Shown here: positions 7,970 through 51,767 of the stretch, piece by piece
Layout: every line of letters starts with the position of its first letter
Position numbering within the stretch: the first letter of the stretch is position 1
IMG/VR virus record: IMGVR_UViG_3300025668_000001
Span: 1 to 52,831 of that record
Direction: 5' to 3' (one strand)
Length of the DNA stretch: 52,831 nt
From: a virus
Lineage: Duplodnaviria > Caudoviricetes
Position numbers and translations under genes: made by a program
The notes under the pieces: model-generated
Told to the model about the DNA's origin: nothing
The model's database searches: none
Seen by the model: only the letters and a program-made list of their open reading frames with translations

Positions 7970-8000
7970 TTGACGTATATTGGTCCTCTGCTAGTATCAT
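7970..8000 (+). promoter_or_regulatory. Sigma70-like promoter, divergent from int
   Basis: TTGACG, 16-bp spacer ending in TGC, then TAGTAT. Confidence 0.55.
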
Positions 8001-8082
8001 AGGTGCGAAAGTGTTTTCGCATCCTCCCTGTGAGTATTTATACTCTAACTCTAGCCCCTAGACTTCGGTCTGGGGGTTTTTT
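8001..8082 (+). ncRNA. Candidate sRNA with an anti-SD TCCTCCCT segment
   Basis: Promoter upstream, two hairpins, terminator GCCCCTAGAC-TTCG-GTCTGGGGGT plus T run, no ORF. Confidence 0.5.
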
Positions 8083-8096
8083 AGTGGATGGGCCAT

Positions 8097-8120
8097 AAAA
8101 AAAGGCCTCCGAAGAGGCCT
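8097..8120 (-). terminator. Rho-independent terminator
   Basis: AGGCCTC-TTCG-GAGGCCT followed by a T run on the minus strand. Confidence 0.85.
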
Positions 8121-8131
8121 CAATTCAATCT

Positions 8132-8424
8132 GACTGGCACGTCAAACATTAACTGCTACTAGTGACTCTAGCTATAGTAGGGAATCCTTCGTCATATCCA
8201 TCATCTACTGCCTTTGTGGTGAATATTGTGTCCGAATCTAATTGCAGGACTACTTGATCTGTTCCTGTTTCGTTTGCTGCCTCTGAAGCACTTATCAGCG
8301 CATTGCCTAACTCTTGCGCCATATTCTTTTGTAGTATCATACTTCATTACCTCTTGCTCTTGGTGACTATCGTATTGATACTTTAATTCTCAAAAGACTG
8401 GCACGTCAAGCATTAACTGCTACT
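8132..8424. repeat. 29-bp direct repeat pair (8132-8160 and 8396-8424)
   Basis: GACTGGCACGTCAA(A/G)CATTAACTGCTACT with one mismatch. Confidence 0.9.
8149..8340 (-). CDS. Hypothetical protein (63 aa) bracketed by the direct repeats
   Basis: ORF with GAGG SD. Confidence 0.7.
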   Translation of the reverse strand: MILQKNMAQELGNALISASEAANETGTDQVVLQLDSDTIFTTKAVDDGYDEGFPTIARVTSSS

Positions 8425-8633
8425 CATAAAATGGCATAGCCAAATTTTGCTCAGTGCATAGTTATCCACATCCTCGGCTCCCGGCCATCCACAATCAGAT
8501 CGACGCCGCACCGCCGCACGAAATCGTTTTATAAGATGACGAACAAATAATTCGACACCCTATCGACACTTTGTTATGTGTCGAGCCGGGGCCGAGTGGC
8601 TCTGCTTAAATCTAACTCATGGAGACTGACCAA

Positions 8634-8948
8634 ATGAACACCGAAAAAATCGACATTGGCGAACTGGCCAACAATCTGAGCAACAACCAAATCTGTGATT
8701 TGCTGGGACGAGTAGGGGATCGCATCAACATTTTTTATGGGCTGCACAATATGTGCTGCCTGTCATCTGATTTTGCTAACGCATCGATGAACGGCCCGGT
8801 CATCCAGATAAATTGCGAGACCGCATATTTGGATGATCTGAGTGAGCATGAGTTTTTCGCTTATGCTGTGGCCAAGGGTGGCGGGAATACAGAAGGCCAG
8901 CACGAAGGCTGCAACCACGAAAACGAGGGGGACGCATCCGATGGCTGA
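8634..8948 (+). CDS. Hypothetical putative early protein (104 aa)
   Basis: ATG follows the shared leader GGAGACTGACCAA. Confidence 0.75.
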   Translation: MNTEKIDIGELANNLSNNQICDLLGRVGDRINIFYGLHNMCCLSSDFANASMNGPVIQINCETAYLDDLSEHEFFAYAVAKGGGNTEGQHEGCNHENEGDASDG

Positions 8949-9330: not shown

Positions 9331-9625
9331 CTTGACACCCCTCAGAGCCATTTTCCGGCCCTCTGAGTGGGGGGTTATCGGCCCGGGCACTACATATCAA
9401 AAAAACCCGTTCCCTGTATTCAGGGCCAATAATGTCTTTTTAGAGGTGTATTATGGCCCGTTTTGTACTGTATTTTTTCAGCCCTATATATAGTGACCAT
9501 TTAAGTTCCCAAGATGGGGAATTCTTTGTCACCTGATAAAGGGCTTGCAAATCACATTAGTTGAATGCTAAGGGTGGGCATGGCCGGAGGCCTGTCAAAT
9601 TTTTATCTAACTTGGAGACTGACCA

Positions 9626-10612
9626 ATGAACACTTACACAAACCTTTCGCACCTCTCACCTGAAATCATTTCTCTTGCACAGCGTTTGCATGAGCGCCAA
9701 CAGGCCGAGCAGCCCAGCCCAGCAATGAAGCGCCTGTTTCCTGCTCTGGATAAAACCGGGTTCACCGCCGAGGCTGTCGAGCTATTCCATGAAATGAACG
9801 GCACAGAAAACAACTACGGCGAATTCGCCGGGGTTCCTGAGAACGTGGGCCGCCTGATCCGCCGCACCGATACCAACCAGCCTTTGGGTGTGGTGGGTGA
9901 ACGCTACGCAATCGCACAGAATGGTGATCTGGCCGCTAAACTGGCCGAGGGCTGCGAGGCTGCACTTCCTACCCGGGCGCTGCAAAACATCGAACTGCGG
10001 GAAAGCATCAGCCGCAACGGGCGGTTCAGCCGCTTCGAATATTCTTTTCCTGAACTGGGCGCAGACATCCGCCAGCTAACAGGCCGCAGCACTTCCCTCA
10101 AATTCCGGGTTGCGGTGGTCAATGGATTTTCAGGCACGAGTATCCGTGCGACGGCAGGCGCAATCGATTGGTATTGCGACAATGGCATGACGTTTGGAGA
10201 GTTCGAAACCTCTGTTTTCCGCCATACGTCCGGCTTTAACCCAAACAAGGTAAAGCAGTTTGTGACGCTCGAGGCCGAGCGGTTCAAAGAGCGTGTGAGC
10301 ATCTGGCAGCGTTGGGCCTTGAATGAGATCAACCCATCCGAGGCCGAGCTTTGCTTAGAGGAAGCCGGGATGGCTGGCCGCACAATCAAGCGTGTAATGG
10401 AGCAGCTAGACCTCGAGGCGCAAGAACGTGGAATGACAACGTGGGCCGTATATTCAGCGTTGACCTACCGCTCGAGCCACAACAGCGAACGGTTTGGCGT
10501 CCGCAATTCCAACAATATAGACAATGTGGCCGAGGTGTTGGATCGCCGTGAGCGTGAGGTGGGCCAGATCATAAGTCATCCGGCAATGGCACGGATCGGC
10601 ATGGCCGCCTAA
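9626..10612 (+). CDS. DUF932-family protein
   Basis: R-TDTNQPLGVVGERY..QN, VNGFSG and CDNGM...RHT pattern typical of DUF932. Confidence 0.75.
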   Translation: MNTYTNLSHLSPEIISLAQRLHERQQAEQPSPAMKRLFPALDKTGFTAEAVELFHEMNGTENNYGEFAGVPENVGRLIRRTDTNQPLGVVGERYAIAQNGDLAAKLAEGCEAALPTRALQNIELRESISRNGRFSRFEYSFPELGADIRQLTGRSTSLKFRVAVVNGFSGTSIRATAGAIDWYCDNGMTFGEFETSVFRHTSGFNPNKVKQFVTLEAERFKERVSIWQRWALNEINPSEAELCLEEAGMAGRTIKRVMEQLDLEAQERGMTTWAVYSALTYRSSHNSERFGVRNSNNIDNVAEVLDRREREVGQIISHPAMARIGMAA

Positions 10613-10613
10613 A

Positions 10614-10691
10614 GTCGAAACGCCCGGTTCATCGCCGGGCGTCTGCCGGGAAGGCTCCACACAATGTGGCCCGGTACTGATGAGACAAGCC
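10614..10691 (+). ncRNA. Hammerhead ribozyme, type II (copy 1), predicted cleavage after C10643
   Basis: GTC-GAAA-[CGCCCGG/CCGGGCG]-TC-[TGCCGGG/CCCGGTA]-CTGATGA-GAC; complete catalytic core; tail AGCC can pair with bulge GGCT. Confidence 0.92.
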
Positions 10692-10713
10692 CCCTAACTT
10701 GGAGACTGACCAA

Positions 10714-11259
10714 ATGAACACTCAAACCAAAATCACCCTGACAGGTTCAACACCCGCCGAGACTGTTTCCGGCCCTAAGTGGGTTGCCACTAAGACCCGC
10801 ACCGCTTGGGCGCATGGTGCTGTGATCGCAGAGAGCCGCCGACAGGGCCGCACCTTGCAGACGCTGGCTGAGGAGTATGGTGTGAGCATTGGCACAATTG
10901 ATCGGATCGCCGAGGCGCAGCCGCAGCCGCTGGCCCATGATCGGAGGGCATTGTTGAACGCCAAGACATTGCTGGACGCTGTACAGGCTGCCCGTGATGC
11001 CCGGAATGATATGGCCGCCCAGTTGCTCGAGGCGCAGCACGATTTGGCCAATGCGAAGCTGGGCGAGGCGTCCGCCATTGCACGGCTCAACGATCCGAGC
11101 GTGGCTAACAAGTGGAAGGCCGAGGCGCACCAAGAATATTTGCGCCGGGATGAGGCCGAGCGTGACCGGGCGGCAGCGGAGGCACAGATCGAAATGATGG
11201 CCGAGCGGCTGGCAGAATGTCGGGGCCGGGGTTTCTGGGCACGGGTATTCAATCGCTAA
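10714..11259 (+). CDS. HTH + coiled-coil protein (181 aa)
   Basis: TLQTLAEEYGVSIGTIDRI HTH, Ala-rich coil, C-terminal GFWARVF. Confidence 0.7.
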   Translation: MNTQTKITLTGSTPAETVSGPKWVATKTRTAWAHGAVIAESRRQGRTLQTLAEEYGVSIGTIDRIAEAQPQPLAHDRRALLNAKTLLDAVQAARDARNDMAAQLLEAQHDLANAKLGEASAIARLNDPSVANKWKAEAHQEYLRRDEAERDRAAAEAQIEMMAERLAECRGRGFWARVFNR

Positions 11260-11333
11260 GTCGAAACCGGGGCGCTGCCCCGGTCTGCGGGATAGGCTGC
11301 ACACAACGTGCTCCCGTACTGATGAGACAAGCC
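11260..11333 (+). ncRNA. Hammerhead ribozyme, type II (copy 2), predicted cleavage after C11285
   Basis: GTC-GAAA-[CCGGGGC/GCCCCGG]-TC-[TGCGGGA/TCCCGTA]-CTGATGA-GAC-AAGCC; stems covary with copy 1. Confidence 0.92.
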
Positions 11334-11355
11334 GCTAACTTGGAGACTGACCACA

Positions 11356-11691
11356 ATGAAACTTTTGACCAAAGCAAACCGCACGAAGCTCGAGGCAAAC
11401 GCCCGGAAGACTGAGATCGAAGGCGAAGACGATCACCGCCCGGTGGTTAAACTGTTTGACCCCTGCGGCGCTGCCACTTGGCTGTTGACCGAGATTGAGG
11501 GCGACATTGCCTTTGGCCTCTGTGATCTGGGCATGGGTTCGCCGGAGCTTGGCAGCGTATCGATCACCGAGCTTGAGGCCATCAAGGGGCCGCTGGGGAT
11601 CGGTATTGAGCGGGACCAATACTTTGAGGCTGAGATGACGATCTCAGAATATGCCGAGGCCGCCCGTGCCTCTGGCTCGATTGCAGCGTAA
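11356..11691 (+). CDS. DUF2958-family protein
   Basis: PVVKLFDPCGAATWLLTE, AFGLCDLGMGSPELGSV and IERD motifs. Confidence 0.85.
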   Translation: MKLLTKANRTKLEANARKTEIEGEDDHRPVVKLFDPCGAATWLLTEIEGDIAFGLCDLGMGSPELGSVSITELEAIKGPLGIGIERDQYFEAEMTISEYAEAARASGSIAA

Positions 11692-33995: not shown

Positions 33996-34952
33996 ATGAA
34001 CTCATTCTGGATGCCTAAAAAACAGCCTTTGTATGCTCCTATGCTCTCTACCTTTGGGGGCGGGTCGGCTCGTGGTTTTAACCCCGGTGGTGGTGGTGGT
34101 GGTATGTCCTTCACTTCAAAGTCTATATTCGATGGAAACTATTCTAGTTATATCAAACTTAGTGGCGCAACAGCCTACAGGGGCATGATGTTTGTGTATG
34201 AGGACTATTTTGATACGGGTGATGATCATCTTATGGTATTCAAAGAGCAAGCCTCTACTTGGTTTAATTCAGGGGAATATCGTAGGCGGACGGCTGGCAC
34301 AACACTGGCACTGCAAAGCACTCCGACTACCTTTACTGGTAGTAATGCCAACATTGGCGGGGCTAGGGATGTTGCCTACTATGTAGATACGAATGGAAAT
34401 TACAACGTATATGTTTCGTCTTATGCCAGCCCAAACGGTGTCCTTCATTATACGCTTCCGGGCGGCCTGTCAGATTTGAGAAGTGACTGGTCTAACGCAA
34501 CACATGTAGCGGACTTTACCCCCAGTTCTGGGAGTTCTTGGGGAGTTGCAGTCGATTTTACTCGTCATTATCTCTATCTGGGCACCCACTCTAATAATCT
34601 TCTGTGGCGATGGGATATTGACCCAGCAGACGGATCACTTGATTTTAACAGCAGGGCCAGTACACAAGTTAATGGGGCGAATGGTCAGGCCGCTGGTATG
34701 GCCGTGGCTTATGATCCGTGGGCAGACGCCATTTATACCGGCACTACTTATAGCCAATCGCCACTAGAGATAGTAGTGCTTGACGCAGCAAATTGGACGC
34801 AATCCCCCATAGGTCGGATAACCGTGTCCAACCTTAATAGTTGGGTTAGTTCTATAGGGTGTATTGAAGTGTCTGAAGACACTCTCTATTTCCAAGGGGA
34901 CGAAAATAGTGCCAGCTCCGTTTCTAAACCTATCACAGCCCTGTCCCGGTGA
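33996..34952 (+). CDS. Putative receptor-binding/virion beta-rich protein
   Basis: PMLSTFGGGSARGF N-terminus followed by a propeller-like region. Confidence 0.55.
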   Translation: MNSFWMPKKQPLYAPMLSTFGGGSARGFNPGGGGGGMSFTSKSIFDGNYSSYIKLSGATAYRGMMFVYEDYFDTGDDHLMVFKEQASTWFNSGEYRRRTAGTTLALQSTPTTFTGSNANIGGARDVAYYVDTNGNYNVYVSSYASPNGVLHYTLPGGLSDLRSDWSNATHVADFTPSSGSSWGVAVDFTRHYLYLGTHSNNLLWRWDIDPADGSLDFNSRASTQVNGANGQAAGMAVAYDPWADAIYTGTTYSQSPLEIVVLDAANWTQSPIGRITVSNLNSWVSSIGCIEVSEDTLYFQGDENSASSVSKPITALSR

Positions 34953-40596: not shown

Positions 40597-43382
40597 GTTA
40601 TGGTGAATACAAATTCGGAGACTTTATGAAGAACTACGACGTAGGCGGTCCAAGTGACGGCCTTGTGGGGTTCGCAGAAGGTTTTGCGGCTGGTTTTGTA
40701 CCTGCATATGCGGCGTCTAATAAGGCGGCTGCCGACAAAGAACTGGCTCTAGCTAAACTAGATAAACAAGCTGAGATTGATGCCGCCAAGGCGAAGGCCG
40801 AAACAACCAGCGAATATAATGAGATGATGAAAAAGGCTAAAAACATCGTCTCTACGCTGACGTTGCCTCCCGGGGTAAATCCTAATGATGCGGTGATGAC
40901 CGCCTACACGATGCTTAATGGCGGTATATCAGACAACACGGTGTTCACTCAGTTAAGTAAGGCGATTGAGGATAAGACATTGGTGTATTCTGATGAATCT
41001 CCTACTGAGACAGCCCCCCCGACTGCCGCAGAACCCGTCCCAGAGGCTGCCCCGGTAACATCACCTCTAGATGATGAAATGAACAAGGCCTTCGGTAAAC
41101 AATCCGCTGTACAGCCAGCCCCAGAGCCAGCACCTACAGTCGTATCACAAGATGAAACACCGGCTGAGACGGACGGAGAGCCTGTACAAGAGGCCTCTCT
41201 CGGAAGTGAATGGGCGCAGAGATTTGTAGACCGGCAAGAAGCCCGTATCAATGCTGCGTCAGAGACACAGGTAGCATCCCTAGAGACAAAGACTGACGTA
41301 ACCAACCCGGATGGTCTGGGTGGTGGCTCTGATAGTGCCGCTGATATTGTTCTAGCAGACGCAGATGGTGTTGCCACTCCGTCAGAGCGTACCGCAGCGA
41401 CTGTGCGAACACTGAAGATTAACCCTCTGGCTAAAACTGCCGCCGCAGAAGAGATCGAAATTAATAAGATCGATGACTACGAGAAAGCTATGGCCGCTGT
41501 TGTAGCACTAACGGGTGTGGCTGGTCAGGAGGAAAAGCTGAAACGTGCCAGATTCCTTCTAAAGCAATACACCGCCACCCCAAAGATTGGTGACATGAAC
41601 GAACAGCAACTTGATGCGTTTATAAGACTGACAAGCTCCATAGGTACTATGCCTCCTGAATATAAGGCAATTGACGCTCAAGTAATGAACTCACTTCGGG
41701 TACAGGCTGCCGACTTCCTCAAGGATACTCGGAATAAGTCTCTACCGTCACTGTCCTCTACAAACCCAGATGAACTCCGGGGTGTTCAGAGAGACATCAC
41801 GACAGGTCGTATAACCAACGTATCTACAGTGTATAGGGACCAACTGGCTGAACGTATAAAGGCTCTAGACATAAAGGCAGAAGCGGAGCGGGTAGCTGGC
41901 CTTACGCCAGAAAAGGTAGTCCAAGAGGCACAACGTGCATTTATAGCTGGACTATCCCCCGATTTGTCTTTCGAAGACAGGAAAGCCGCTATTCAGAATT
42001 GGCAGTCTACTGAGGGACAATTACTTCTCAGCGTCATGCGGTTCACCGATAAGCCAGATAAGCCTCAAGAGATCAGTAACTTCGAGGAGGCGCTGGTAAA
42101 TGAAGTCATGCGCACACCCGAATATGAGAACGCAGATAGTGCCGGTAGAGAGGCTCTACTTGTCCGTGCTAAAGGCCTACTCACTAGCCGAGGAAATGAC
42201 ACTCTAACCTCAGGTGAATTGGCACAGAATCTGGCACAAGCTCGTCTTGATCTTACCTCAAAAGACCCCAAAGTCGTGGCGGATGCACAGCTATATATAG
42301 ATGTAGTTTACCCCACCCAGAGACAAGCACTAGCGGACGTAAGCTCTATTGGGAAAACGCCAAATAGAGACACGGTAGCCATCTTAACTGATGGTAGACG
42401 TATTGCGGTAATGTCAGACGGAAATAATGGGTATACTGATCTTCAAGGCAAACCCGTAACAGATATCCAATCTATTACTACAGAGAAAATGTCTGATAAC
42501 ACTAGGGCCGCTGTGACGGCCATTAGTGGTCCTCTAGACGAACAAGCCGCTAAGATGGCTGCGGCAGTTAACGTCGCTACCCTTGGATATGAACTCGAGA
42601 AGATGGCCACTGAGTATGAAGGTGTTCTAACCCGAGTAGGCGGGGCACAGGCCTTCCTATCAAGCGTAAAAGTGGAGATAGGTGCCGCCTTGAATATCAT
42701 TGGTGAAGCCAGCGACGATCAAGAGCTAAACCAAGAAACTGTCCTACAGAAAGTTAATGATTACCTATCCAACAGCGCACTGAGCGAAGAAGAAGCCGCA
42801 ATGGTTAAAGAATTCATGGCTGCGTCTACTCGTTACATCTTTGCAGCGGGTAAGGCTCTCGGCCAAGAAGGTAATGGCTTCTCTAACCAAGACTATAACA
42901 ATATCAGGTCCGCCCTACTCAACAGCAATAACCTGAAGAGCTTTGGTGGAAACATGCGTACCTTTGCTCGTGAGAGACTTACGGATGCCACGAGGACTGC
43001 TAAACAACTAGCTGGTCGTACTGGAGTTCGTCAGGCACAGGACTACGGTGGTACTATTGGTAACGAAATATTTACTGCGGACCAATACTTCACAATGTTG
43101 GCCGACGGTGTACCAGATGCCGTAGATTACATGGCTTGGGCCTATAAAGGGGCACCTATTGAAGTAAATCTTGCATCCGGTCCTGATACACCCGCAGGGC
43201 AGATATCTGGAAACCTGTTTAACAAATATGTAGGTATATACAAAAATACCGACACCGACGAGGGGAAACAGGAATTTGGGAATAACCTGCTAATAGCACT
43301 GACCTCATTGCTGGGTAGTCCAGAGAAGGCTCAGGATGAGTTAGACAGGATTATAGCCGAATCGAATAAAGGGGGTGAATGA
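40593..43382 (+). CDS. Putative internal virion protein (929 aa)
   Basis: Large helical ORF near the end of the structural arm. Confidence 0.65.
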   Translation: MSYGEYKFGDFMKNYDVGGPSDGLVGFAEGFAAGFVPAYAASNKAAADKELALAKLDKQAEIDAAKAKAETTSEYNEMMKKAKNIVSTLTLPPGVNPNDAVMTAYTMLNGGISDNTVFTQLSKAIEDKTLVYSDESPTETAPPTAAEPVPEAAPVTSPLDDEMNKAFGKQSAVQPAPEPAPTVVSQDETPAETDGEPVQEASLGSEWAQRFVDRQEARINAASETQVASLETKTDVTNPDGLGGGSDSAADIVLADADGVATPSERTAATVRTLKINPLAKTAAAEEIEINKIDDYEKAMAAVVALTGVAGQEEKLKRARFLLKQYTATPKIGDMNEQQLDAFIRLTSSIGTMPPEYKAIDAQVMNSLRVQAADFLKDTRNKSLPSLSSTNPDELRGVQRDITTGRITNVSTVYRDQLAERIKALDIKAEAERVAGLTPEKVVQEAQRAFIAGLSPDLSFEDRKAAIQNWQSTEGQLLLSVMRFTDKPDKPQEISNFEEALVNEVMRTPEYENADSAGREALLVRAKGLLTSRGNDTLTSGELAQNLAQARLDLTSKDPKVVADAQLYIDVVYPTQRQALADVSSIGKTPNRDTVAILTDGRRIAVMSDGNNGYTDLQGKPVTDIQSITTEKMSDNTRAAVTAISGPLDEQAAKMAAAVNVATLGYELEKMATEYEGVLTRVGGAQAFLSSVKVEIGAALNIIGEASDDQELNQETVLQKVNDYLSNSALSEEEAAMVKEFMAASTRYIFAAGKALGQEGNGFSNQDYNNIRSALLNSNNLKSFGGNMRTFARERLTDATRTAKQLAGRTGVRQAQDYGGTIGNEIFTADQYFTMLADGVPDAVDYMAWAYKGAPIEVNLASGPDTPAGQISGNLFNKYVGIYKNTDTDEGKQEFGNNLLIALTSLLGSPEKAQDELDRIIAESNKGGE

Positions 43383-46300
43383 TGGAGCCTGAAGTAACCG
43401 TAGAATCCCTTTTGAAAATGGCGGAAGAGACAGGAGATCTATCTACAGGTGGCGAAAGCCCCTCAATAGAAGATCTCTTAGAAATGGCCAGAAAATCTGG
43501 GGACATGGAGAAGCCAGACGAAAACCCACTCTTTACCGCAGACCAATACTACGCCCCGCCCAGCCTACTTCAGACTATGGGCATCACTAGCATTGACGAA
43601 GATGACCCTATCTATCGAAACCTGATGACTAACCCGGACTTCCGTGAGGCGGAGCCGTCAGAACGTCGTCGGATGTTCAGGATAGCAGTAGATGATGCTA
43701 ACCAAGCCTTATACGAAAGGCAGGGGACAGAGGCTGACGTTGGGCCTATTGCAGATGTACTGGGTGATGGTACAAACCCAAGGTTTCAAATGGGTGTGGA
43801 TGCAGATGGACAGGAACAGAAGTATGTAGTCCCGGCACCCAGCTCCCGTGGCGCAGATATGATCTTTGGTGAGACTGGTGGCAACGTGCTTCGGTCTATC
43901 ACCGGAGGGGTAATGCAAGCCGGTAGAATGATTGCAGGTCTACCAGAGGCAATTGCCGATCAGGTAGGTGATGATGAAGAAGACAACGCCGTAAATACTA
44001 CCCGACAGAATTTTCCTCTAGCCCCACCAGAAAATCAGTATGATGCGATGGGACAAGAGATCACCTCCATGATCGTAGGCGGTATAGGTGGCGCTGGGCT
44101 AGTCTCTAATTTGTCTAAGGTTCTTGGCCTTACTCCAAAAATGGCAGAGTGGACATCTAAAGCGTTAGCCAAATTAAAAGGCAAATCCCCCGCAGAGATA
44201 GCAGACGCTGCCCGTGTAATGTCACAGATACTTATTGCGGGTACGGGCGCAAACTTAGGGGCTTCAGCTACAACACCAGAAGAAACTAAGCCTCTCTTTG
44301 GAGACGAAATAGTATCTAGTTTGGGTATATCCCCAGAGGACAACCGATTTCTGGCTAACTTTTCAGACAACGTAGCCTTCTCAACTGGACTAACCATACT
44401 GGGAAGGTTGGCTGTAGCGGGTGGCAGAGCAATCAAGAAGGTAAGTCAGGGCGCATTAGCCGCCAATAAAAACTTCAGAGACCGTGATATAGGCCTCGTT
44501 ATCCTGTCTGGACTAGACCCCAACCTAGTAGGCGCACCCGCAGAAATTATCGCCCAACGGGCTAGAATTATGGGTGAGGTACTTATCAAAAACAAAGAAT
44601 TTACCTCAGAGCTACTTTCGAACAAAACCATACCATTAGACAGCCTGACCGCCTTACGGGCGGGTGTGGATGAGTATGTAGACCGAGCTTACAGTTTCCA
44701 GAAAAGTCTCATGGGCACAAAGGAGTGGGATAAATTTCGTTCTGATCTAGCAATAAACATAGTGTCAGAGATGAATAGTCTCCGTGTATCTAGGGCTTCC
44801 GCCCGTGAAATTATAACTAAAGAAGGTGATATGGCGGCAGGTATGGCCGACGCTTTCACTGGGACAGCGGATGAACTTGCTGGCGCAGCCTCAGATGGAT
44901 TAACTCGCCCGGGTGTAGACCTAGCCGCAGAGCAACTTGGTAGGCCTGTAATTGACGCTGTCGAAGACGCCACAGAAAAACTATCAGGTGCCACTGCTAC
45001 CCGAGACTTAGTAGGACAGCAGCTTGAGGTTGCCGCCAGCCGAAATGCTGTGACGGACGCTCTCCTTGATGCCCGTAGAGGTAATGCACTAGGTTCTGAT
45101 CAAACTATGAGGGCACTCCTAGAGAAATTATCTGGTCCAGACCTATATAACTCATGGCAACGCTCCTCGTCTGCGTACAAAGATGCGTTTAAAAATCTAC
45201 CAGACGACATACCTCTGCCAGTTGAAGAGTTTGTGTCTCTAGTAGAAGCATCGTTCCCTGATCCTAAGATGTGGCCCAACCTCATCGATCAAGTAACGCT
45301 GACAGAGACTGTCGAAGACCCGCTAAAGACCCTTCTAGCTTTGGTGACCCCAAAGGCTGATGTAGGTACCGCTGGCATGAAGTCTTCGGCTTCCCCCGGC
45401 ACTTTAACGGTAGAGACCTATGAGGAGATGGTTCAGAGGCTGACGGACCAAGGTACAAGTTTTAAACAAGTATATACTGAACTGCGTCCGGCATTGGAAC
45501 TCCGTATCAGAGCCTTACGGGCACAGAAGCTAGATACTAACGCTGCGCCCCTTATAGCATTGAAGAGGGGTATTGATGCTATTGCGGAAGGAATTGGAGA
45601 CCCCGCCTTTATAGACGCTAAAACCAAGTATATGGAGCATGCAGAAACATTCCTCAACACGCAGCCTCTCCGTGCATACGACACGGCGGTCAAGGATATT
45701 GTGGAAAATGCCCCGGGTCCAAGAACCGGAATACCTAAAGGGCAACCAGATGCCTATAAGGCTGGGCTAGATGCTCTAAAGCAGTCTGTAGACGAAGACT
45801 TCACTCCCTATGCAGAGGCCTTTATTCGTGCCTTAAACCAAGGCGCTGACCAAAGCCTGAACCCAGAGTTGTCTGAGGCTTACATCGGACTGGCTATGAA
45901 TGCCCTTAGTAGGTCTCTAGAAGCGGGTCAGACTGTTACCTCCCGTAGCATACGGAACGCCACCCAGCCGTTTGTAGATCAACTAAAGCGCATCCGTGGC
46001 GGTGTATATGAAAGGTGGGCCTCCGTAGTACAAGACTTAGAGGCACTAGAGGCTGGCCTAATTACCGCAGATCAAGCGGTAGCTAACCTAGCTAGGGAGA
46101 AAGCCGGAGTTCTGTCTAATGCTACTAAGGACGTAGCCGGAAAGTTTGTATTTGATCTGCCGGGAGTACCTAAGATTAAGGATAACCCGCAGTCTGTCTT
46201 CAAACAAATCTATAGGTCTGCGGACTCACCTGACATTACTCGTAGGCTACTAGAGGCTGCCGACAGCCAAGGTAACCCAATGGTGCGTCAGGGCATGCAA

Positions 46301-46918
46301 GCGGCATTTATTGATGACTTAGCCAGCCGGTTATTTACCAACAAGCCAATGGCAATCTCCACCAAGGACACTTCAAAAAATTCTATGCAAGTTTCGCAGT
46401 CACAGCTTGTTGGGATTCTAAGTGACAGATCAAGCCCAACCCTAAAGACACTAAATATACTTTTCGCAGATGACCCCGACAGGGCAGCGCAGATCGTAAG
46501 TATGCTGGAGATCCAAGAGTTAATTGCTGGATCTAAGAATTTAAGAGGTGACCTAAAGGGTTCAAGCACGGCAATAGACAGCAAGATTACCTATGACAAA
46601 GATCTTACTAAACTTATGGACCGTATTATCACGCTTCGATTTGGCGTTCTAAATACAACCGCCACGGTTACACGAAACTTAGTTGGGGCACTAACTGCCG
46701 GTTACAAGGGTTCCGTACAGGAAGCAGCGGAACAGACAATCAGATTCATAGCGGCTGAACCTCTAGAATTTGATCGTGTCTTGAAGTTAGTAGCTGAAGG
46801 TAAGGACGCTGATGCAATGCAGATTATGACTTACTGGGCCTCTCGAGGGGCGCTAGGTGGGGCCAAAGTTCGTGGATCTACAGACGAACAAACCCGGGAA
46901 GCACTACCCGTAGAATAG
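43379..46918 (+). CDS. Putative internal virion protein (1179 aa)
   Basis: Large terminal structural ORF, Ala/Gly-rich helical. Confidence 0.65.
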   Translation: MMEPEVTVESLLKMAEETGDLSTGGESPSIEDLLEMARKSGDMEKPDENPLFTADQYYAPPSLLQTMGITSIDEDDPIYRNLMTNPDFREAEPSERRRMFRIAVDDANQALYERQGTEADVGPIADVLGDGTNPRFQMGVDADGQEQKYVVPAPSSRGADMIFGETGGNVLRSITGGVMQAGRMIAGLPEAIADQVGDDEEDNAVNTTRQNFPLAPPENQYDAMGQEITSMIVGGIGGAGLVSNLSKVLGLTPKMAEWTSKALAKLKGKSPAEIADAARVMSQILIAGTGANLGASATTPEETKPLFGDEIVSSLGISPEDNRFLANFSDNVAFSTGLTILGRLAVAGGRAIKKVSQGALAANKNFRDRDIGLVILSGLDPNLVGAPAEIIAQRARIMGEVLIKNKEFTSELLSNKTIPLDSLTALRAGVDEYVDRAYSFQKSLMGTKEWDKFRSDLAINIVSEMNSLRVSRASAREIITKEGDMAAGMADAFTGTADELAGAASDGLTRPGVDLAAEQLGRPVIDAVEDATEKLSGATATRDLVGQQLEVAASRNAVTDALLDARRGNALGSDQTMRALLEKLSGPDLYNSWQRSSSAYKDAFKNLPDDIPLPVEEFVSLVEASFPDPKMWPNLIDQVTLTETVEDPLKTLLALVTPKADVGTAGMKSSASPGTLTVETYEEMVQRLTDQGTSFKQVYTELRPALELRIRALRAQKLDTNAAPLIALKRGIDAIAEGIGDPAFIDAKTKYMEHAETFLNTQPLRAYDTAVKDIVENAPGPRTGIPKGQPDAYKAGLDALKQSVDEDFTPYAEAFIRALNQGADQSLNPELSEAYIGLAMNALSRSLEAGQTVTSRSIRNATQPFVDQLKRIRGGVYERWASVVQDLEALEAGLITADQAVANLAREKAGVLSNATKDVAGKFVFDLPGVPKIKDNPQSVFKQIYRSADSPDITRRLLEAADSQGNPMVRQGMQAAFIDDLASRLFTNKPMAISTKDTSKNSMQVSQSQLVGILSDRSSPTLKTLNILFADDPDRAAQIVSMLEIQELIAGSKNLRGDLKGSSTAIDSKITYDKDLTKLMDRIITLRFGVLNTTATVTRNLVGALTAGYKGSVQEAAEQTIRFIAAEPLEFDRVLKLVAEGKDADAMQIMTYWASRGALGGAKVRGSTDEQTREALPVE

Positions 46919-46953
46919 AAACAACCCCTCCGGGCTTTCGCTCGAAGGGGCTG
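46916..46953 (-). terminator. Terminator between the convergent arms
   Basis: CAGCCCCTTCGAGC-GAAA-GCCCGGAGGGGTTG followed by TTTCT. Confidence 0.75.
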
Positions 46954-46988
46954 CTATCTAACTTGAAAAGTGACCAAACCTTTCAAGT
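46916..46988 (-). ncRNA. Candidate trans-acting antisense sRNA against the early-gene leaders
   Basis: Promoter TTGACC-17-TATAAC (47020-46992); 5' hairpin containing UUUGGUCACUUUUCAAGUUAGAU; GAAA-loop terminator. Confidence 0.65.
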
Positions 46989-47016
46989 ATTGTTATACCT
47001 ATACAAGGCTCTGAGG

Positions 47017-47241
47017 TCAACTGTCCTCAGGGCTTTTTTCTTGTTCTACCTCGGGTTCTGGTCGATTTTTCTCGAACAGAGACACCTCGAACAAAGACCG
47101 ATTTAAGAGCCAGTGCATATACGGAAGGCTGTTGATCGAGCTATTCATGTATACTTGACCGTTGTTATCAAAGCCACAAACCAAGACGGACTGTAGCTTC
47201 TGTTTCTTGGCCTCTTTAAAGACCTGATTGATTTCTTCCAT
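47017..47241 (-). CDS. Hypothetical protein (74 aa)
   Basis: AGGAG SD. Confidence 0.8.
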   Translation of the reverse strand: MEEINQVFKEAKKQKLQSVLVCGFDNNGQVYMNSSINSLPYMHWLLNRSLFEVSLFEKNRPEPEVEQEKSPEDS

Positions 47242-47250
47242 GATAATCTC

Positions 47251-47679
47251 CTAATTCACGGAGCCAAGGGTGTAGAATGATACTTCCTCGGCGGGGATGT
47301 CGTAAAACCGCTCTCCAAAGGGCGATTTATAGTTGGGTACTTCTACGCAAGGCGCAGCGGCCACTGTCTTACGTCCTACCCTAGCCACTGCATGCAATCC
47401 GGCGTTGAAAACGAGGAACTGCGTGGGTTTAGTTAGGAACTTGGCCTTTCGAACGGGTATATGCAGCGTGGAGTAGCTAAACTGCACCCCATGCCAGCTT
47501 TTCTTGACCTCTACCTCACAATAGAAGGTCTTACCCTTGCCTCTGACCACAAGATCGACGCCAAATTGATCCTCGTGGTCCTCACAGTGGTATCCTGCGT
47601 GTTCCCAGAAGGCTTTAGCCCTATCTCTGGCCGGGGCATCATACACATCAAATTCATGCTGCTCGAATTCTTTGTACAT
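47251..47679 (-). CDS. PD-(D/E)xK nuclease-fold protein
   Basis: GVDLVV...CEVEVKK. Confidence 0.6.
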   Translation of the reverse strand: MYKEFEQHEFDVYDAPARDRAKAFWEHAGYHCEDHEDQFGVDLVVRGKGKTFYCEVEVKKSWHGVQFSYSTLHIPVRKAKFLTKPTQFLVFNAGLHAVARVGRKTVAAAPCVEVPNYKSPFGERFYDIPAEEVSFYTLGSVN

Positions 47680-47839
47680 CAGACATATACCCCTTTTGGT
47701 TTTCAACGTAGGCTACATCGAAGCCACGTTGCCATTCCTTGTGGTTCAGAGATCCACTAGAGAACGGTGAGTTAAAAACGCCTTTGTGGAATGCTTCGAT
47801 CCCTTTGTTAAAGGCTCTTGTTAATGTTGGGTTGCTCAT
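47654..47839 (-). CDS. Small Rmf-like protein
   Basis: RAFNKGIEAFHKG..NSPF......EWQRGF matches the Rmf spacing pattern. Confidence 0.5.
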   Translation of the reverse strand: MSNPTLTRAFNKGIEAFHKGVFNSPFSSGSLNHKEWQRGFDVAYVENQKGYMSDVQRIRAA

Positions 47840-47905
47840 AACCTACCTCGTTTTTAGTAAGTCCCTGCGTATTTGATCCAACTCTCCATAAGTGGTACGG
47901 GGTAA

Positions 47906-49591
47906 TTAAACCCCGCACGAACCTCCTGTTCCTGAGATGTCGCATATGTCGTGTGTCTCAACATGCTCGTCAAACTCTTCGCCTAGCTTTTCAACGGCCT
48001 CTGAATAGGGGACAGAGGTAAGAGGCTGACCGCCTCGGCTGCCGTCTGGATAACAGGTGAACCCTCGAAGGCGTGGAGCATACTTCGCTAGTGTCTGTGC
48101 GAACCTATCCACCGTACCCTCATTGTTGAGTTTAGACCCCCATGCAGGAAGGTTGATGGTGGATGAGATGGACATATCAACATAGTCTTGTACATCTGCT
48201 TGGAATGCCATTCGACGCTCGTAGTCGTCTGCTAAATCCAAAGCACTCTCAACATTATCAGGATGTGCGCCATATCTGTCGATTAGTTCCTGTGCAGCGG
48301 AGTCTACTACATACTGATATACCCAACGAGTGTTACCTTTGAGATAACGTCGCTTATACGCCACAGCAAAGATTGGCTCTACGCCTGTAGAAGTACCGGC
48401 AAGGATGCCAATAGATCCTGTTGGTGCAATAGCACGATTGGCCACTGGACGGCTGATACCAAACTCGTCCGCAGTTTCTCTAGATACTTTATCGCTGACG
48501 CCTTTATAGACCTGCAACCACGAGTGTAGTTCTGGAGTTACCTCGTACTTGGACCCACGCTGGATCAACCACTCGTGCATACCCATCAGGCCTAGACCCA
48601 AACGACGGTTCTTCTCACGAGTTTCGTATACCTTGTCGTAAGGCAGCTTGGCTTTAAGTGTGCCGCAGATAAGGAACTTAGTACCCAACGCAACGATGTC
48701 TGCCATCTCATCGATGTTCTCGATGCGGCCCATATTGATAGAGCCGAGGTTGCACACGTCACTATCATCTGCCGAGGTTACCTCAGTACAGGCGTTGCGC
48801 AGTGTGTCGTTCTCTTTATCAAAGAAGTTAAAGGAGAAACCCGGCTCGGCAGACTGCATAGCCTGACGGACGTTCTTCATAAACACTTCACCTACTTCAC
48901 CTGTCTTGTAATAGTTAAGCAGCCATTCAGTGTCGTAGTTCACAGAGATGTTGGTCATGTCCAACGGGGCAGGGAAATTAAAGTCTTCCTGCTTAATATC
49001 CCATAATGTCTTTCCTGTGCTACCCACAGGCATGTTGGCCCAATCTTTAGCACCTAGAAACTCGTGAATATCGCCGTGCTTCCAGTTGAGGCTGGCATAG
49101 ATAGCACTACGGCGTGATCCACCCTGCATCACACGGCGGCCAATCTCATTCAGCATATTCATTTTGGGGATAGGTCCGCTTGCCTGACCACCTGTTTTAG
49201 CGATAGGAGATCCGCTGGCACGGTAAACAGAATAGTCTACACCAATGCCGCCGCCTGTCATCAAGGCGCTCTCGGCTTTCCACGATAGGTTGGCCCAATC
49301 CTCACGGGTGTCTTCTTCCGCCTTCAGAAGATAACAGTTGTTGAAGAATTTGTTGGGCCGTCCTGCATAATAGAGATAACGGCCACCGGGAATGAATTTC
49401 ATCTCACGCACATACTGTGTGAGTTGATCAATTTCTTCTTGAGATAGAAACTCTCCGCAGACATCGTCAATCAATGTCTTAGCTAGTGCATCCCACGTTT
49501 CTGCACCTTCGTGCTTATACTTGTGGTTAAAGATGTCTTCACTAAATTTGGATCGAAACGCTGGATTAAGGTTGGATTTAAAACTGCTCAT
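47906..49591 (-). CDS. nrdJ: Ribonucleotide reductase, class II (B12-dependent)
   Basis: NNCY, NACTE, CNLGSIN, RRLGLG, IAPTG, SISST; no beta-subunit gene in the genome. Confidence 0.85.
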   Translation of the reverse strand: MSSFKSNLNPAFRSKFSEDIFNHKYKHEGAETWDALAKTLIDDVCGEFLSQEEIDQLTQYVREMKFIPGGRYLYYAGRPNKFFNNCYLLKAEEDTREDWANLSWKAESALMTGGGIGVDYSVYRASGSPIAKTGGQASGPIPKMNMLNEIGRRVMQGGSRRSAIYASLNWKHGDIHEFLGAKDWANMPVGSTGKTLWDIKQEDFNFPAPLDMTNISVNYDTEWLLNYYKTGEVGEVFMKNVRQAMQSAEPGFSFNFFDKENDTLRNACTEVTSADDSDVCNLGSINMGRIENIDEMADIVALGTKFLICGTLKAKLPYDKVYETREKNRRLGLGLMGMHEWLIQRGSKYEVTPELHSWLQVYKGVSDKVSRETADEFGISRPVANRAIAPTGSIGILAGTSTGVEPIFAVAYKRRYLKGNTRWVYQYVVDSAAQELIDRYGAHPDNVESALDLADDYERRMAFQADVQDYVDMSISSTINLPAWGSKLNNEGTVDRFAQTLAKYAPRLRGFTCYPDGSRGGQPLTSVPYSEAVEKLGEEFDEHVETHDICDISGTGGSCGV

Positions 49592-49601
49592 TTGAAGTGC
49601 C

Positions 49602-49928
49602 TCACCGATTATCGCCTGATCCTTGGATTACTCCACGGGCCAGTCTGCTATTTAATTTGTCTAGATTTTGTTGGGCTATTGTTTCCATACCGATGCCCAA
49701 GTCGGTACATAGGGCGGCTATATACCAAAGAACGTCACCTACTTCGTGGGAGATGGCTTCACGCTGCGTGGGGTCGAAGTGTCCGTTATTGTCACGCAAG
49801 ACCTTCTTGACCTTGCCAGCTACCTCACCTGCCTCTGAGAACAGCCCAAGTGCGGGGTACACGATTACATCTGCGTCGTTGTAGATGGCGGTCTTAGAGG
49901 CCTGTGTCTGATAGTCTTCAAACCTCAT
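49602..49928 (-). CDS. mazG: MazG-like nucleotide pyrophosphohydrolase
   Basis: LGLFSEAGEVAGKVKK...EVGDVLWY. Confidence 0.9.
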   Translation of the reverse strand: MRFEDYQTQASKTAIYNDADVIVYPALGLFSEAGEVAGKVKKVLRDNNGHFDPTQREAISHEVGDVLWYIAALCTDLGIGMETIAQQNLDKLNSRLARGVIQGSGDNR

Positions 49929-50208
49929 TAGAATTCTCCCCAATAGCCTCAATGATTTGATTGATGTACCATTTGGCCTTCTTGAGATCCTCGACTGCAT
50001 TGCCTTTGTAAGCATGACGCCACAAGTATTTCTGGGCATTGCCGTGGCAGTAGGATTTGAATCCCTCTTCGCCCAGTGCGTGATAGATTGCCTCAATGCA
50101 CTCGATGCCACTCTGGTTATAGTGGGGTGGATGATTGACCATATCTGACTGAGTTTCCCCGGTCAGAGTAAGTCCCGATAAATTTAATGTATGCCCATTG
50201 GTTTGCAT
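49918..50208 (-). CDS. DUF3310 (T7 gp1.7-like) protein
   Basis: VNHPPHY...IECIEAI...GNAQKYLWR...EDLKKAKWY. Confidence 0.9.
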   Translation of the reverse strand: MQTNGHTLNLSGLTLTGETQSDMVNHPPHYNQSGIECIEAIYHALGEEGFKSYCHGNAQKYLWRHAYKGNAVEDLKKAKWYINQIIEAIGENSNEV

Positions 50209-50217
50209 ATCTTCGCC

Positions 50218-50541
50218 TCAGTTTAGTTTGTTCTTGTTGAATGGGATGATCTTTTTGTTTGCCCGTGCCTCAAGCAGTTCTTCGTCTGGCTCGAATACCC
50301 ACTCTTCCTCTTCTTCACTCTCTTGGAGATCTCGAAGCATCCTTCCAATGACAGAAAAGTGGTCCATTGAAGTGTTGAGAGACAGGTTCAGGCCGTTCAG
50401 TAGGTCGATGAAGTACAGTGCCTTGTCTTCATCAAAGTCTTCAGAGAGGCTGTGCCCGTAGGCTACCTCTATTTCATCATCGTCCAATATTTTTAGACGT
50501 AGGAGTAAGGTGTTTTCCTCTAGGTCCGGGAAATTATCCAT
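50218..50541 (-). CDS. Hypothetical acidic protein
   Basis: ORF within the operon. Confidence 0.8.
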   Translation of the reverse strand: MDNFPDLEENTLLLRLKILDDDEIEVAYGHSLSEDFDEDKALYFIDLLNGLNLSLNTSMDHFSVIGRMLRDLQESEEEEEWVFEPDEELLEARANKKIIPFNKNKLN

Positions 50542-50887
50542 GTTGGCCCTTCATCATCTTAAAGAAATATTCTGCATCAATTACGGCTAGGGGCTTCTTC
50601 CTATCACCTTTGATAATTGCTACGGGTTCTGCCCCTTTGGGTGCGTTTACCTCGGCCTGTTCCATCACCTTGTAGACAGCGAAACTCTTGAAGGACTTGC
50701 ACTCGATGGAGAGCGGTAGAAGGCGTCTGGCAGCGGGACTAAGGACTATGTCTTCACCGCCAGCGCCCATTGATGTGGAGATAACATCCAGCGGCTCGAG
50801 TTTGGGAAAGGTCTCGTAGATCTTATCCCGCACCCACTGTTGGTGCTTTCTCCCTTTGGCCTTTGCAGAGCTAGTCTTGATTGCCAT
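50534..50887 (-). CDS. Holliday-junction resolvase-like endonuclease
   Basis: SAKAKGR...GEDI...SIECK. Confidence 0.8.
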   Translation of the reverse strand: MAIKTSSAKAKGRKHQQWVRDKIYETFPKLEPLDVISTSMGAGGEDIVLSPAARRLLPLSIECKSFKSFAVYKVMEQAEVNAPKGAEPVAIIKGDRKKPLAVIDAEYFFKMMKGQHG

Positions 50888-51767
50888 CGAGGACTTCACC
50901 TTCGTACTCAGTGTACCAGTAGTGTCTGGGGTTTTTGGCCTGAGACAGGGTCTGGGGAAGATGCTTGGCGTGTGGCCAGCATGACCCTAGATACGAACAG
51001 AACCCACACTGAGAAGGCAGACGCTTTGATCCAGTAGGTTGCTTACGGAACGTCTCGTCCTCTGGCTCGAAGCAACGCTTGAACTCACCGTCGATGTTCT
51101 CAATCTTGTCTTTGATTGAGTCTACGACTTGCTCTTGCCTTTCCTCACTCTGAGGACACTCGACGAACTTCACATGGCCGGACGATTTATCCACCACTAT
51201 CCATCCACCGGGCTGCTTCTGTTGGGCCATAGAGTAGACGTACAACTGGTTCACATAACCAAAGTCGTCACTCTTATCTAAACCCTCAAAGCCGTTGCTC
51301 CACTTGTGAGAGAAGGCCCACGGGCTGGCTGACTTTGTGTCCCAGACCTTATCGTCAATATCGATATCGGACTCGCCCTTAATGGACGTGCCTTCGATCT
51401 CTAACGTGACCTTGTCCTTACCGCCTGTGATGTTGAACTTGGCGGCACGAAGTAACACTTCGATGATACATTCAATAGCATCACCGTGCATCATCCGTAT
51501 TATGTGGTTGTAAGGCATCCGTGTCTTAGGCTTACCCATCTTCTCCATCTGTAACTGACAGAGAGGGCGGCCAGTGTTAGAACCACGAATGCGAAATGAT
51601 GGCTCTGGCTCACGCAATAGCTGCTTTGCCATAGCCTCTTTCCACATTTCACCAGCGTCATCGATGATCTTGAGGATCTCCGCCTTATTTTGGCGAAGAT
51701 CTTCGTTGTCATTGTTCGATAGGCGCTCGGTAAATTGCTGGAACTTAACCTCGTGCGGATGTTCCAT
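50871..51767 (-). CDS. PD-(D/E)xK exonuclease (Cas4-like)
   Basis: PLCQ...GESD...WDTKS...QLYVY...CGFCSYLGSC. Confidence 0.8.
   Translation of the reverse strand: MEHPHEVKFQQFTERLSNNDNEDLRQNKAEILKIIDDAGEMWKEAMAKQLLREPEPSFRIRGSNTGRPLCQLQMEKMGKPKTRMPYNHIIRMMHGDAIECIIEVLLRAAKFNITGGKDKVTLEIEGTSIKGESDIDIDDKVWDTKSASPWAFSHKWSNGFEGLDKSDDFGYVNQLYVYSMAQQKQPGGWIVVDKSSGHVKFVECPQSEERQEQVVDSIKDKIENIDGEFKRCFEPEDETFRKQPTGSKRLPSQCGFCSYLGSCWPHAKHLPQTLSQAKNPRHYWYTEYEGEVLDGNQD

Follow-up and report, generated by a model that had tools for sequence, protein, structure and literature searches.

The question raised by this locus is why a short non-coding stretch between two converging operons of a phage genome should resemble the ribosome-binding leaders of distant early genes, and whether its minus strand encodes an RNA that acts on them. 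The whole stretch of DNA analysed here (called the window hereafter) is 52,831 nucleotides (nt) long and is a complete virus record with direct terminal repeats, IMG/VR record IMGVR_UViG_3300025668_000001. An earlier examination of the letters without database searches (the sequence-only reading) had proposed a distant antisense RNA for the leader shared by the early genes, and all the comparative tests that were run supported it: unit and leader co-occur in 8/8 genomes, the first stem-loop covaries and the true RNA-leader assignment ranks 1 among 5040. With a rough probability of 70%, sequence analysis suggests that positions 46913-47020 encode on the minus strand a base-pairing small RNA (sRNA) of about 65-72 nt which addresses the shared early leaders.

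The window is 96.2% identical across 12.8 kilobases (kb) to Roseobacter phage CRP-3, a podovirus of the HMO-2011 type whose isolation host is the Rhodobacteraceae strain FZCC0040. The phages of this type are described as ranking among the most abundant marine virus groups, and CRP-3 is described as integrating into its host (PMC6918029, PMC9038755), with a tRNA-Met gene as integration site (PMC6918029). The genome is organised in two arms, a rightward one that runs from about 8.6 kb to 46918 with early genes followed by structural genes, and a leftward one that passes over the record ends on its way from about 8.3 kb to 47017 and contains the integrase, ThyX, the replication genes and RNR. The sRNA unit sits on the minus strand where the late arm and the replication arm converge, and its parts and immediate surroundings are the following.

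43379-46918, plus strand: last late gene, 1179 amino acids (aa); the 3' untranslated region (UTR) of its mRNA covers the entire sRNA gene.
46913-46924, minus strand: U-rich tail UUGUUUCUAUUC, the expected 3' end of the RNA, overlapping the TAG stop (46916-46918) of the last late gene.
46925-46950, minus strand: stem-loop 2 (SL2), an intrinsic terminator with a GAAA tetraloop (46939-46936).
46951-46960, minus strand: linker that joins SL1 to SL2 and includes GUUAGAU; it is antisense to the leader block AUCUAAC, which lies 5' of the Shine-Dalgarno sequence.
46956-46978, plus strand: leader image, 20/23 identical to the leader consensus, inside the late-operon 3' UTR.
46961-46988, minus strand: stem-loop 1 (SL1), with the 6-nt loop UUGGUC (46977-46972) closed by a U-A pair.
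46992-46997, minus strand: -10 box TATAAC, separated by a 17-nt spacer from the -35 box; predicted start near 46985.
47005-47039, plus strand: intrinsic terminator of the rightward late operon, 12 pairs and a T run, with the sRNA promoter embedded in it.
47015-47020, minus strand: -35 box TTGACC of the proposed sRNA promoter, recognised by its sequence, inside the loop of the plus-strand late terminator.
47017-47241, minus strand: last gene of the leftward replication-module arm, 74 aa, phrog_11040, of unknown function.

The minus-strand TTGACC-17-TATAAC promoter, the unit free of open reading frames (ORFs) and the GAAA-loop terminator, which had been described before from the letters, were all located again at these positions. 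The unit has no AUG and its variants differ by indels of 1-4 nt, and it is therefore not coding; promoter and intrinsic terminator thus flank a non-coding sequence on one strand, as in an independent transcription unit recognised in silico. The TGA stop (47017-47019) of the 74-aa minus-strand ORF falls within the TTGACC hexamer, and the G·U pairs of the late-operon terminator at 47005-47039 are valid on the plus strand only. The placement of UUGGUC in a hairpin loop was borne out by the predicted fold, in which the SL1 loop is unpaired with a probability of 0.9 or more. The sequence UGACCAAA, which immediately precedes the start codons, is complementary to the loop region of SL1, and the SL1 stem is antisense to the Shine-Dalgarno region with its 3' half.

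The leaders that the RNA would address, together with the ribozymes that adjoin two of them, are given below.

8610-8636, plus strand: leader 1 with start codon (8634) and a 2-nt insertion; 104-aa early protein of unknown function, without matches.
9605-9628, plus strand: leader 2 with start codon (9626) of a DUF932 protein (328 aa).
10613-10695, plus strand: type II hammerhead ribozyme that scores 38.8 bits with RF02276 (gathering score 37) and adjoins leader 3 with its 3' tail.
10692-10716, plus strand: leader 3 with start codon (10714) of a 181-aa protein with a sub-threshold sigma-70 region-4 match, directly after the type II hammerhead.
11259-11337, plus strand: second type II hammerhead-like element (RF02276, 35.1 bits, below the gathering score of 37, E = 1.4e-4), abutting leader 4.
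11333-11358, plus strand: leader 4 with start codon (11356) of a DUF2958 protein (111 aa), directly after the second hammerhead-like element.

Each leader ends 0-3 nt before its ATG. When the window was searched with the 23-nt leader consensus at up to 3 mismatches, 4 matches were obtained (9605, 10692, 11333 and 46956), and 0/100 dinucleotide shuffles gave any match, therefore the similarity between the element at the sRNA locus and the leaders is not a matter of chance. Three leaders share an exact 19-nt core, from which 46958-46976 deviates at 3 positions. The count of at least four early genes made by the sequence-only reading is correct, with the fourth leader carrying its 2-nt insertion at 8610-8633 before the ATG at 8634. 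Its alignment of 20 out of 23 positions was confirmed as well: at two of the three differences the leader has G and the element A, which gives G·U pairs in the RNA:mRNA duplex, and the third is a C/G difference which gives a C·C mismatch. The exact leader 19-mer had 0 matches in the viral contigs searched, a set from which close relatives may be missing.

Some further observations were made on the leaders themselves. The conservation of the leader cassette reaches into the first codons, since three of the four genes begin with ATGAACAC and many relatives begin with ATGAA(C/A), and the leader tag may include a downstream element. An explanation of leader conservation by extended pairing with the 3' end of 16S rRNA was considered, and only a weak fit was seen when judged by eye. 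The CUAAC blocks of leaders 3 and 4 begin 0-2 nt after the hammerhead 3' tails, and hammerheads in such positions are described as a known arrangement in phage transcripts (PMC3088659). Binding of the sRNA beside the pseudoknot-forming hammerhead tail might affect self-cleavage. The leaders of phage CRP-235 are without hammerheads, therefore the ribozyme is not an obligatory part of the system.

The pairing of the 23-nt anti-leader segment was scanned against 26,398 overlapping 36-nt windows covering both strands of the genome. The four leaders were the top four trans sites, with predicted duplex energies of -22.9 to -26.8 kcal/mol against a mean of -7.9 and a standard deviation of 2.6. The full RNA was then cofolded with 81-nt target contexts, and after the opening of SL1 and of the target structure a net gain of 8.9-10.8 kcal/mol was retained; leader 1 gave a duplex energy of -22.9 and a free energy difference (ddG) of -8.9 to -11.6 kcal/mol, and leader 2, the best trans site, gave -26.8 and -10.8 to -20.7. 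Two solid blocks of pairing are predicted, one between the loop region and UGACCAAA beside the AUG and the other between the linker with the lower stem and AUCUAACUUG. The fifth-best site, at 34457-34492 on the plus strand inside the ORF 33996-34952 (ddG -9.7), probably represents chance.

The conservation of the unit was surveyed in 29 distinct 125-nt variants drawn from 45 IMG/VR contigs and from the window, CRP-3, CRP-212 and CRP-235. The hexamer TTGACC is invariant in all 29, and it is followed by a -10 box at 17 nt of the form TAnnnN (TATAAC, TATACT, TACAAC, TACATA, TAAAAC, TACATT) in 18 variants and by TATAAT at 18 nt in the other 11. CRP-3 has the unit with two substitutions relative to the window, and CRP-212 has a diverged yet recognisable unit at the matching position, where the flanking protein is only about 36-40% identical. 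The upstream ORF of CRP-212 crosses the -35 hexamer in a different frame and stops within the -10 box, therefore coding does not explain the invariance of TTGACC. The convergent gap of CRP-235 holds a further form of the unit with the linker GUUUAG, and that of CRP-1 is 40 nt, which is too short for the unit. The linker GUUAG is invariant in one clade (the CTAAC clade, after its leader block) and GUUUAG is invariant in the clade of CRP-235.

A protein-guided scan of IMG/VR tracked 14 syntenic loci, and the unit was present in all 13 that reach the downstream region, the fourteenth ending early. The full architecture of promoter, SL1 and terminator was found at 22 of the 27 loci returned by a scan with the RNA core motif and at 23/37 loci returned with the GUUUAG form. 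The core motif also had 10 matches in bacterial genome contigs, with the architecture at 0/10, therefore the search pattern alone does not produce it; the protein-guided scan of the bacterial genome contigs found no relative that would be a prophage copy. Absence of the unit from relatives that carry the leader would have spoken against an antisense RNA, and the opposite was seen, as unit and leader co-occur in every one of the 8 genomes that hold both regions (the window, CRP-3, CRP-212, CRP-235, G001, G002, G003 and G006), with identical relative orientation in all of them.

Within these genomes the RNA gene and the leaders change together. The two bases 5' of CUAAC are AT, TT or AA and agree between the RNA gene and most leaders of each genome, and the base after CUAACU is U or A and likewise matches in both. 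The leaders of the CRP-235 clade read CTAAAC or TTAAAC and its RNA linker reads GUUUAG, which is a matched 1-nt insertion. This agreement was expressed as energy for seven genomes, from which the RNA and leader sequences were extracted by regular expression and the mean duplex energy was calculated for each combination of RNA and genome; CRP-3 was omitted because its RNA segment is identical to that of the window. The cognate RNA was the best partner of its own leaders in 6/7 genomes, and no other of the 5040 permutations scored as well as the true assignment, which also ranked 1 of 120 when only the CTAAC clade was used. The leaders of CRP-235 reach -25.3 kcal/mol with their own RNA and -24.6 with that of G006, which belongs to the same clade, versus -14.0 to -17.9 with the RNAs of the CTAAC type, a gap that arises because linker and leaders share the 1-nt insertion.

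These results also bear on the explanation which survives best beside trans regulation of the leaders, namely that the sRNA is real and has its main role in cis on the late 3' UTR (processing, stability or interference) or on host mRNAs. The overlapping plus-strand 3' UTR is by far the best site of the whole scan (duplex energy -34, ddG -74.9); the leader image in it is a perfect cis-antisense partner of the sRNA, a relation that holds for the late 3' UTR and not for the leaders, and with the late terminator lying downstream of the unit the late mRNA must contain this complement. A purely cis role leaves unexplained why the invariant loop and linker match the blocks flanking the Shine-Dalgarno sequence of four distant genes, why the linker indel is mirrored in the leaders and why the cognate pairs are energetically the best, and we regard this explanation as unlikely.

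The functional strand was examined through the structure of the unit in relatives. All 9 representative variants fold at minimum free energy into the same two hairpins in the minus sense, which is more stable than the plus sense by 5.6-14.3 kcal/mol in 9/9, with minus-sense z-scores of -4.5 to -7.7. RNAalifold reported 7 pairs with changes on both sides (SL1 and terminator combined). For SL1 (11 pairs, 99 cells), 85.9% of the cells pair on the minus strand versus 30-55% when the partners are slid, and 75.8% pair in the plus-strand version; its covariation score of 0.369 was attained by 0/500 shuffles, whose mean was 0.212. A single SL1 pair position takes five types (A-U, U-A, G-C, C-G and U·G), and one variant has a matched insertion of about 3 base pairs (bp) in the stem which the alignment scores as broken. 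The MAFFT alignment columns of SL2 were not structurally consistent, so that folds and regular expressions were used for it instead; the stems that relatives have there differ, GAAA or UUCG loops and U tails occur only on the minus strand, and the G·U pairs would mismatch on the plus strand.

It can also be proposed that the plus-strand copy is what matters, as a leader mimic without Shine-Dalgarno sequence or start codon which serves in the late 3' UTR as a decoy for a protein or for the ribosome. In every genome the element is oriented like the leaders; it keeps exactly their two blocks and lies within a 3' UTR that is certainly transcribed, all of which a decoy would have. Ten SL1 cells that are G·U on the minus strand become A·C mismatches on the plus strand and none behaves in the reverse direction; the more stable minus-sense fold in every variant, the SL2 loops of GNRA or UUCG type with the U tail on the minus strand only, and the invariant TTGACC with a correctly spaced -10 box facing the unit likewise speak against the proposal. 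These structural signals are signatures of a minus-strand RNA and misfit both a plus-strand decoy and a DNA site, and the decoy is accordingly given a small chance.

Still less credit is given to the view that there is no regulator at all, and that the interlocked terminators of two converging operons have trapped a relic of a duplicated leader cassette. Both end hairpins are plausible terminators, and the layout of hairpin followed by leader resembles leaders 1 and 2 and fits an origin by duplication. A relic would decay, and here the loop and linker stay invariant across flanking proteins that are only 37-42% identical, changes in the stem come as compensatory substitutions and the linker varies with the leaders. 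Least probable of all is the reading of the conserved blocks as DNA operators for a phage or host DNA-binding protein, for although they are conserved at the DNA level at all sites, they are non-palindromic, two of the leaders lie within a few nt of a hammerhead and directly before start codons, which is an RNA-level context, and the stem covariation and strand asymmetry are signatures of RNA.

Several points weigh against a trans-acting sRNA and have to be set beside this evidence. Its case consists of sequence analysis throughout, the direction of regulation is one that we infer, and host targets are possible. The promoter consensus scan listed the minus-strand terminator and the strong plus-strand late terminator (47005-47036) and did not list the sRNA promoter, because it demands T as the last base of the -10 box and TATAAC lacks this canonical T; a -10 box ending in C is usual for alphaproteobacterial housekeeping promoters. 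The U tail of the window is broken (UUG UUUC), and stronger U runs than this are present in most relatives. The centre of the duplex over GGAG is weaker, with two G·U pairs and a C·C mismatch, and the central bases form A-U pairs within SL1, so that full zippering competes with a stable stem of 9-11 bp; functional pairing may be confined to the two flanking blocks.

The covariation test comprises seven genomes from two major clades, its statistics ignore relatedness, and its regular expression misses leaders in which the ATG overlaps the GACC block. The leaders of G003 are an exception in it, with -22.6 kcal/mol for the RNA of the window versus -22.1 for the cognate RNA. The element and the leaders have the same orientation, therefore common descent or gene conversion could feed their similarity and some of the apparent covariation, and duplication of a leader cassette is the likely origin of the element. 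Throughout the CTAAC clade the element keeps the two flanking blocks and never the GGAG of the leader, and its bases in the GGAG stretch change in step with the opposite side of SL1. Since the flanking blocks are kept without GGAG, simple copying between leader and element does not account for the pattern, which agrees with selection on an RNA whose fold and whose match to the flanking blocks both have to be maintained.

Transcript data were also consulted. Among the sequencing runs the best, a marine metatranscriptome, matched 0.17 of the sampled words and two others almost none, and the assembled contigs on 43000-51000, which carry no strand or end information, amounted to six short ones and one chimeric one, with 46738-47271 uncovered.

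If the preferred reading of a trans-acting sRNA is followed, its mechanism can be laid out in steps. Host RNA polymerase would start at the sigma-70-type promoter built into the late-operon terminator, and would stop transcribing at the tetraloop terminator, with which the stop codon of the last late gene overlaps. The leftward replication-module transcript probably carries the sRNA sequence at its 3' end as well, because no minus-strand terminator stands between 47017 and SL2 and the leftward operon could read through into the unit. The RNA would display the SL1 loop region UUUGGUCA, with UUGGUC at its centre, and the linker AGUUAGAU, and these segments would pair with UGACCAAA and with AUCUAAC on the two sides of the Shine-Dalgarno sequence of the leader cassette. 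The targets would be the four early genes, which encode a protein of unknown function, the DUF932 protein, a helix-turn-helix-like protein and the DUF2958 protein. Contact through the loop would come first and SL1 would then open, giving about 22 bp of duplex that begins upstream of the Shine-Dalgarno sequence and reaches position -1 relative to the AUG. The expected outcome is that 30S binding would be blocked and the mRNA exposed to RNases, which would amount to post-transcriptional repression of the tagged genes.

The timing of such an action may be considered from the arrangement of the operons and from the gene content. The late terminator lies downstream of the whole unit, therefore the late mRNA carries a perfect complement of the sRNA, and it should titrate or destroy the sRNA; late transcription would also run head-on into the sRNA promoter. 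Pfam scans of 30 ORFs, 10 of which were also compared with PHROGs, returned no repressor-like match, the sole repressor-type signal in that scan being the sub-cut-off sigma-70 region-4-like match in the third leader gene; the earlier remark that no CI-like repressor is recognisable thus held for these ORFs as an absence of match, which is not proof. To our knowledge, no lysogeny regulator has been identified for phages of the HMO-2011 type. For the sRNA, a role ahead of late transcription or in lysogens is weakly favoured over a late shut-off because CRP-3 integrates, no repressor was recognised and the late mRNA would titrate the sRNA or interfere with its promoter.

A more far-reaching and quite tentative proposal, which we think doubtful, is that the RNA and the leader tag together form an RNA-based immunity code in this group of temperate marine podoviruses. 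The RNA, made constitutively, would keep the four tagged early genes untranslated in a lysogen or at an early stage of infection, both in the resident phage and in incoming phages that bear this tag. Fast recognition would come from the universal loop contact (UUGGUC with UGACCAA), and specificity from the variable parts of linker and stem, namely AT, TT or AA upstream of CUAAC, U or A downstream of it, and CUAAC itself or CUAAAC. Phages of the CRP-3, CRP-212 and CRP-235 types, which share the host FZCC0040, would then belong to different immunity groups, like P1 and P7. The leader mimic in the late 3' UTR would remove the RNA at the onset of late transcription, and the element could have begun as a second copy of a leader cassette at the end of the late operon and have gained an antisense promoter later.

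Comparison with known systems was made for family and for logic. A scan of 46700-47300 against Rfam 15 at E up to 10 gave five sub-threshold, unrelated matches, none of which is a phage antisense family. Rfam includes a C4 model. By logic the closest known system is c4 of phages P1 and P7, as an antisense sequence is presented in a loop to a ribosome-binding site. There, a phage small RNA with loop-borne complementarity is described as blocking translation at the ribosome-binding site of a gene of lytic growth (PMC12197685), and differences in c4 sequence between related phages set a specificity known as heteroimmunity (Citron and Schuster 1990, per PMC12197685). The covarying RNA-leader variants of CRP-3, CRP-212 and CRP-235, all isolated on FZCC0040, recall this heteroimmunity.

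The differences are several. c4 is cut from the same transcript as its target and acts on one operon, whereas the sRNA gene lies on the opposite strand and the other arm, at a distance from its targets of about 35-38 kb, or about 14-17 kb when measured round the circular map, with its own promoter inside a terminator and with its tag repeated on four separate cistrons. P4 CI is likewise an RNA, not a protein, that serves as immunity factor through short repeated targets in early transcripts; it is processed from its target transcript and causes premature transcription termination, whereas the geometry here, with Shine-Dalgarno sequence and AUG covered, suggests translation control by the product of a separate gene. 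The likeness to P1 C4 and P4 CI drawn by the sequence-only reading thus stands in logic and fails in homology, as the sRNA has no match in Rfam to either family, and in processing from the target transcript.

Other antisense RNAs share single features with the unit. P22 sar blocks translation initiation of ant, and sar and lambda OOP are described as short cis-antisense RNAs with intrinsic terminators (PMC12197685). The sRNA is also cis-antisense, to the late 3' UTR, but sar and OOP act on the gene that they overlap and its proposed main targets are distant and partly complementary, as for trans-encoded sRNAs. Phage T4 has RegB, an endonuclease cutting at GGAG, and RegA, a translational repressor. 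As with these, a common feature of early ribosome-binding regions would be used for joint post-transcriptional shut-off, though by an RNA and not a protein, and with a tag of two blocks flanking the Shine-Dalgarno sequence. MicL and DapZ are similar in sharing a terminator with the upstream operon and in having a promoter that overlaps the end of the last gene, and CopA and RNA I are similar in a recognition loop that begins U-U-G-G and fits YUNR, which is a match of motif only; unlike these four, the sRNA is encoded by a phage and its targets lie in the same phage genome. The mechanistic kind, a base-pairing phage antisense RNA, is thus known, and on sequence comparison the RNA family and the layout of one RNA with several tagged leaders appear to be new. 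The main texts of PMC6918029 and PMC9038755, the two genome papers on these phages, make no mention of a small RNA, antisense, hammerhead or repressor, and a search of the literature brought up none for these phages either.

Further features were observed around the early region and beside the replication arm. The plus-strand stretch 7970-8090, which lies between integrase gene and early region, combines TTGACG-17-TAGTAT (7970-7998), a short hairpin, the anti-Shine-Dalgarno-like UCCUCCCUGU, a copy of UCUAACU at 8044 and a strong terminator with a T run at 8055-8085, and from its sequence it looks like a candidate second small-RNA unit. Its 10-nt UCCUCCCUGU block and the downstream terminator are kept in CRP-235 despite diverged surroundings, and a search of the unit against Rfam gave no match above threshold. 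Next to it, at 8090-8125, a hairpin GGCCTC CGAA GAGGCC lies between an A run and a T-rich stretch and is conserved in CRP-235; it resembles a bidirectional terminator that would separate the integrase region from the small leftward ORF 8149-8340. Just 5' of leader 1, at 8548-8585 on the plus strand, CGACAC occurs three times (two direct copies and one inverted) around a TATGTG box, which looks like an operator-and-promoter arrangement for the early operon. On the other side of the sRNA locus, a 61-aa ORF at 47654-47839 on the minus strand has a sub-cut-off match to ribosome modulation factor (PF04957, E = 0.0056).

If it works as proposed, the sRNA would be a candidate early-gene or immunity regulator for phages of the HMO-2011 type, and its definition by short, co-varying sequence codes would make it readable straight from metagenomes. 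As a natural example of a single sRNA acting on several cistrons through a shared, portable leader tag it would be unusually clean, and two of the tagged leaders directly follow self-cleaving hammerheads, the second copy being just sub-threshold in Rfam. The comparative data allow precise and cheap tests of this in three cultured phages on one host strain.

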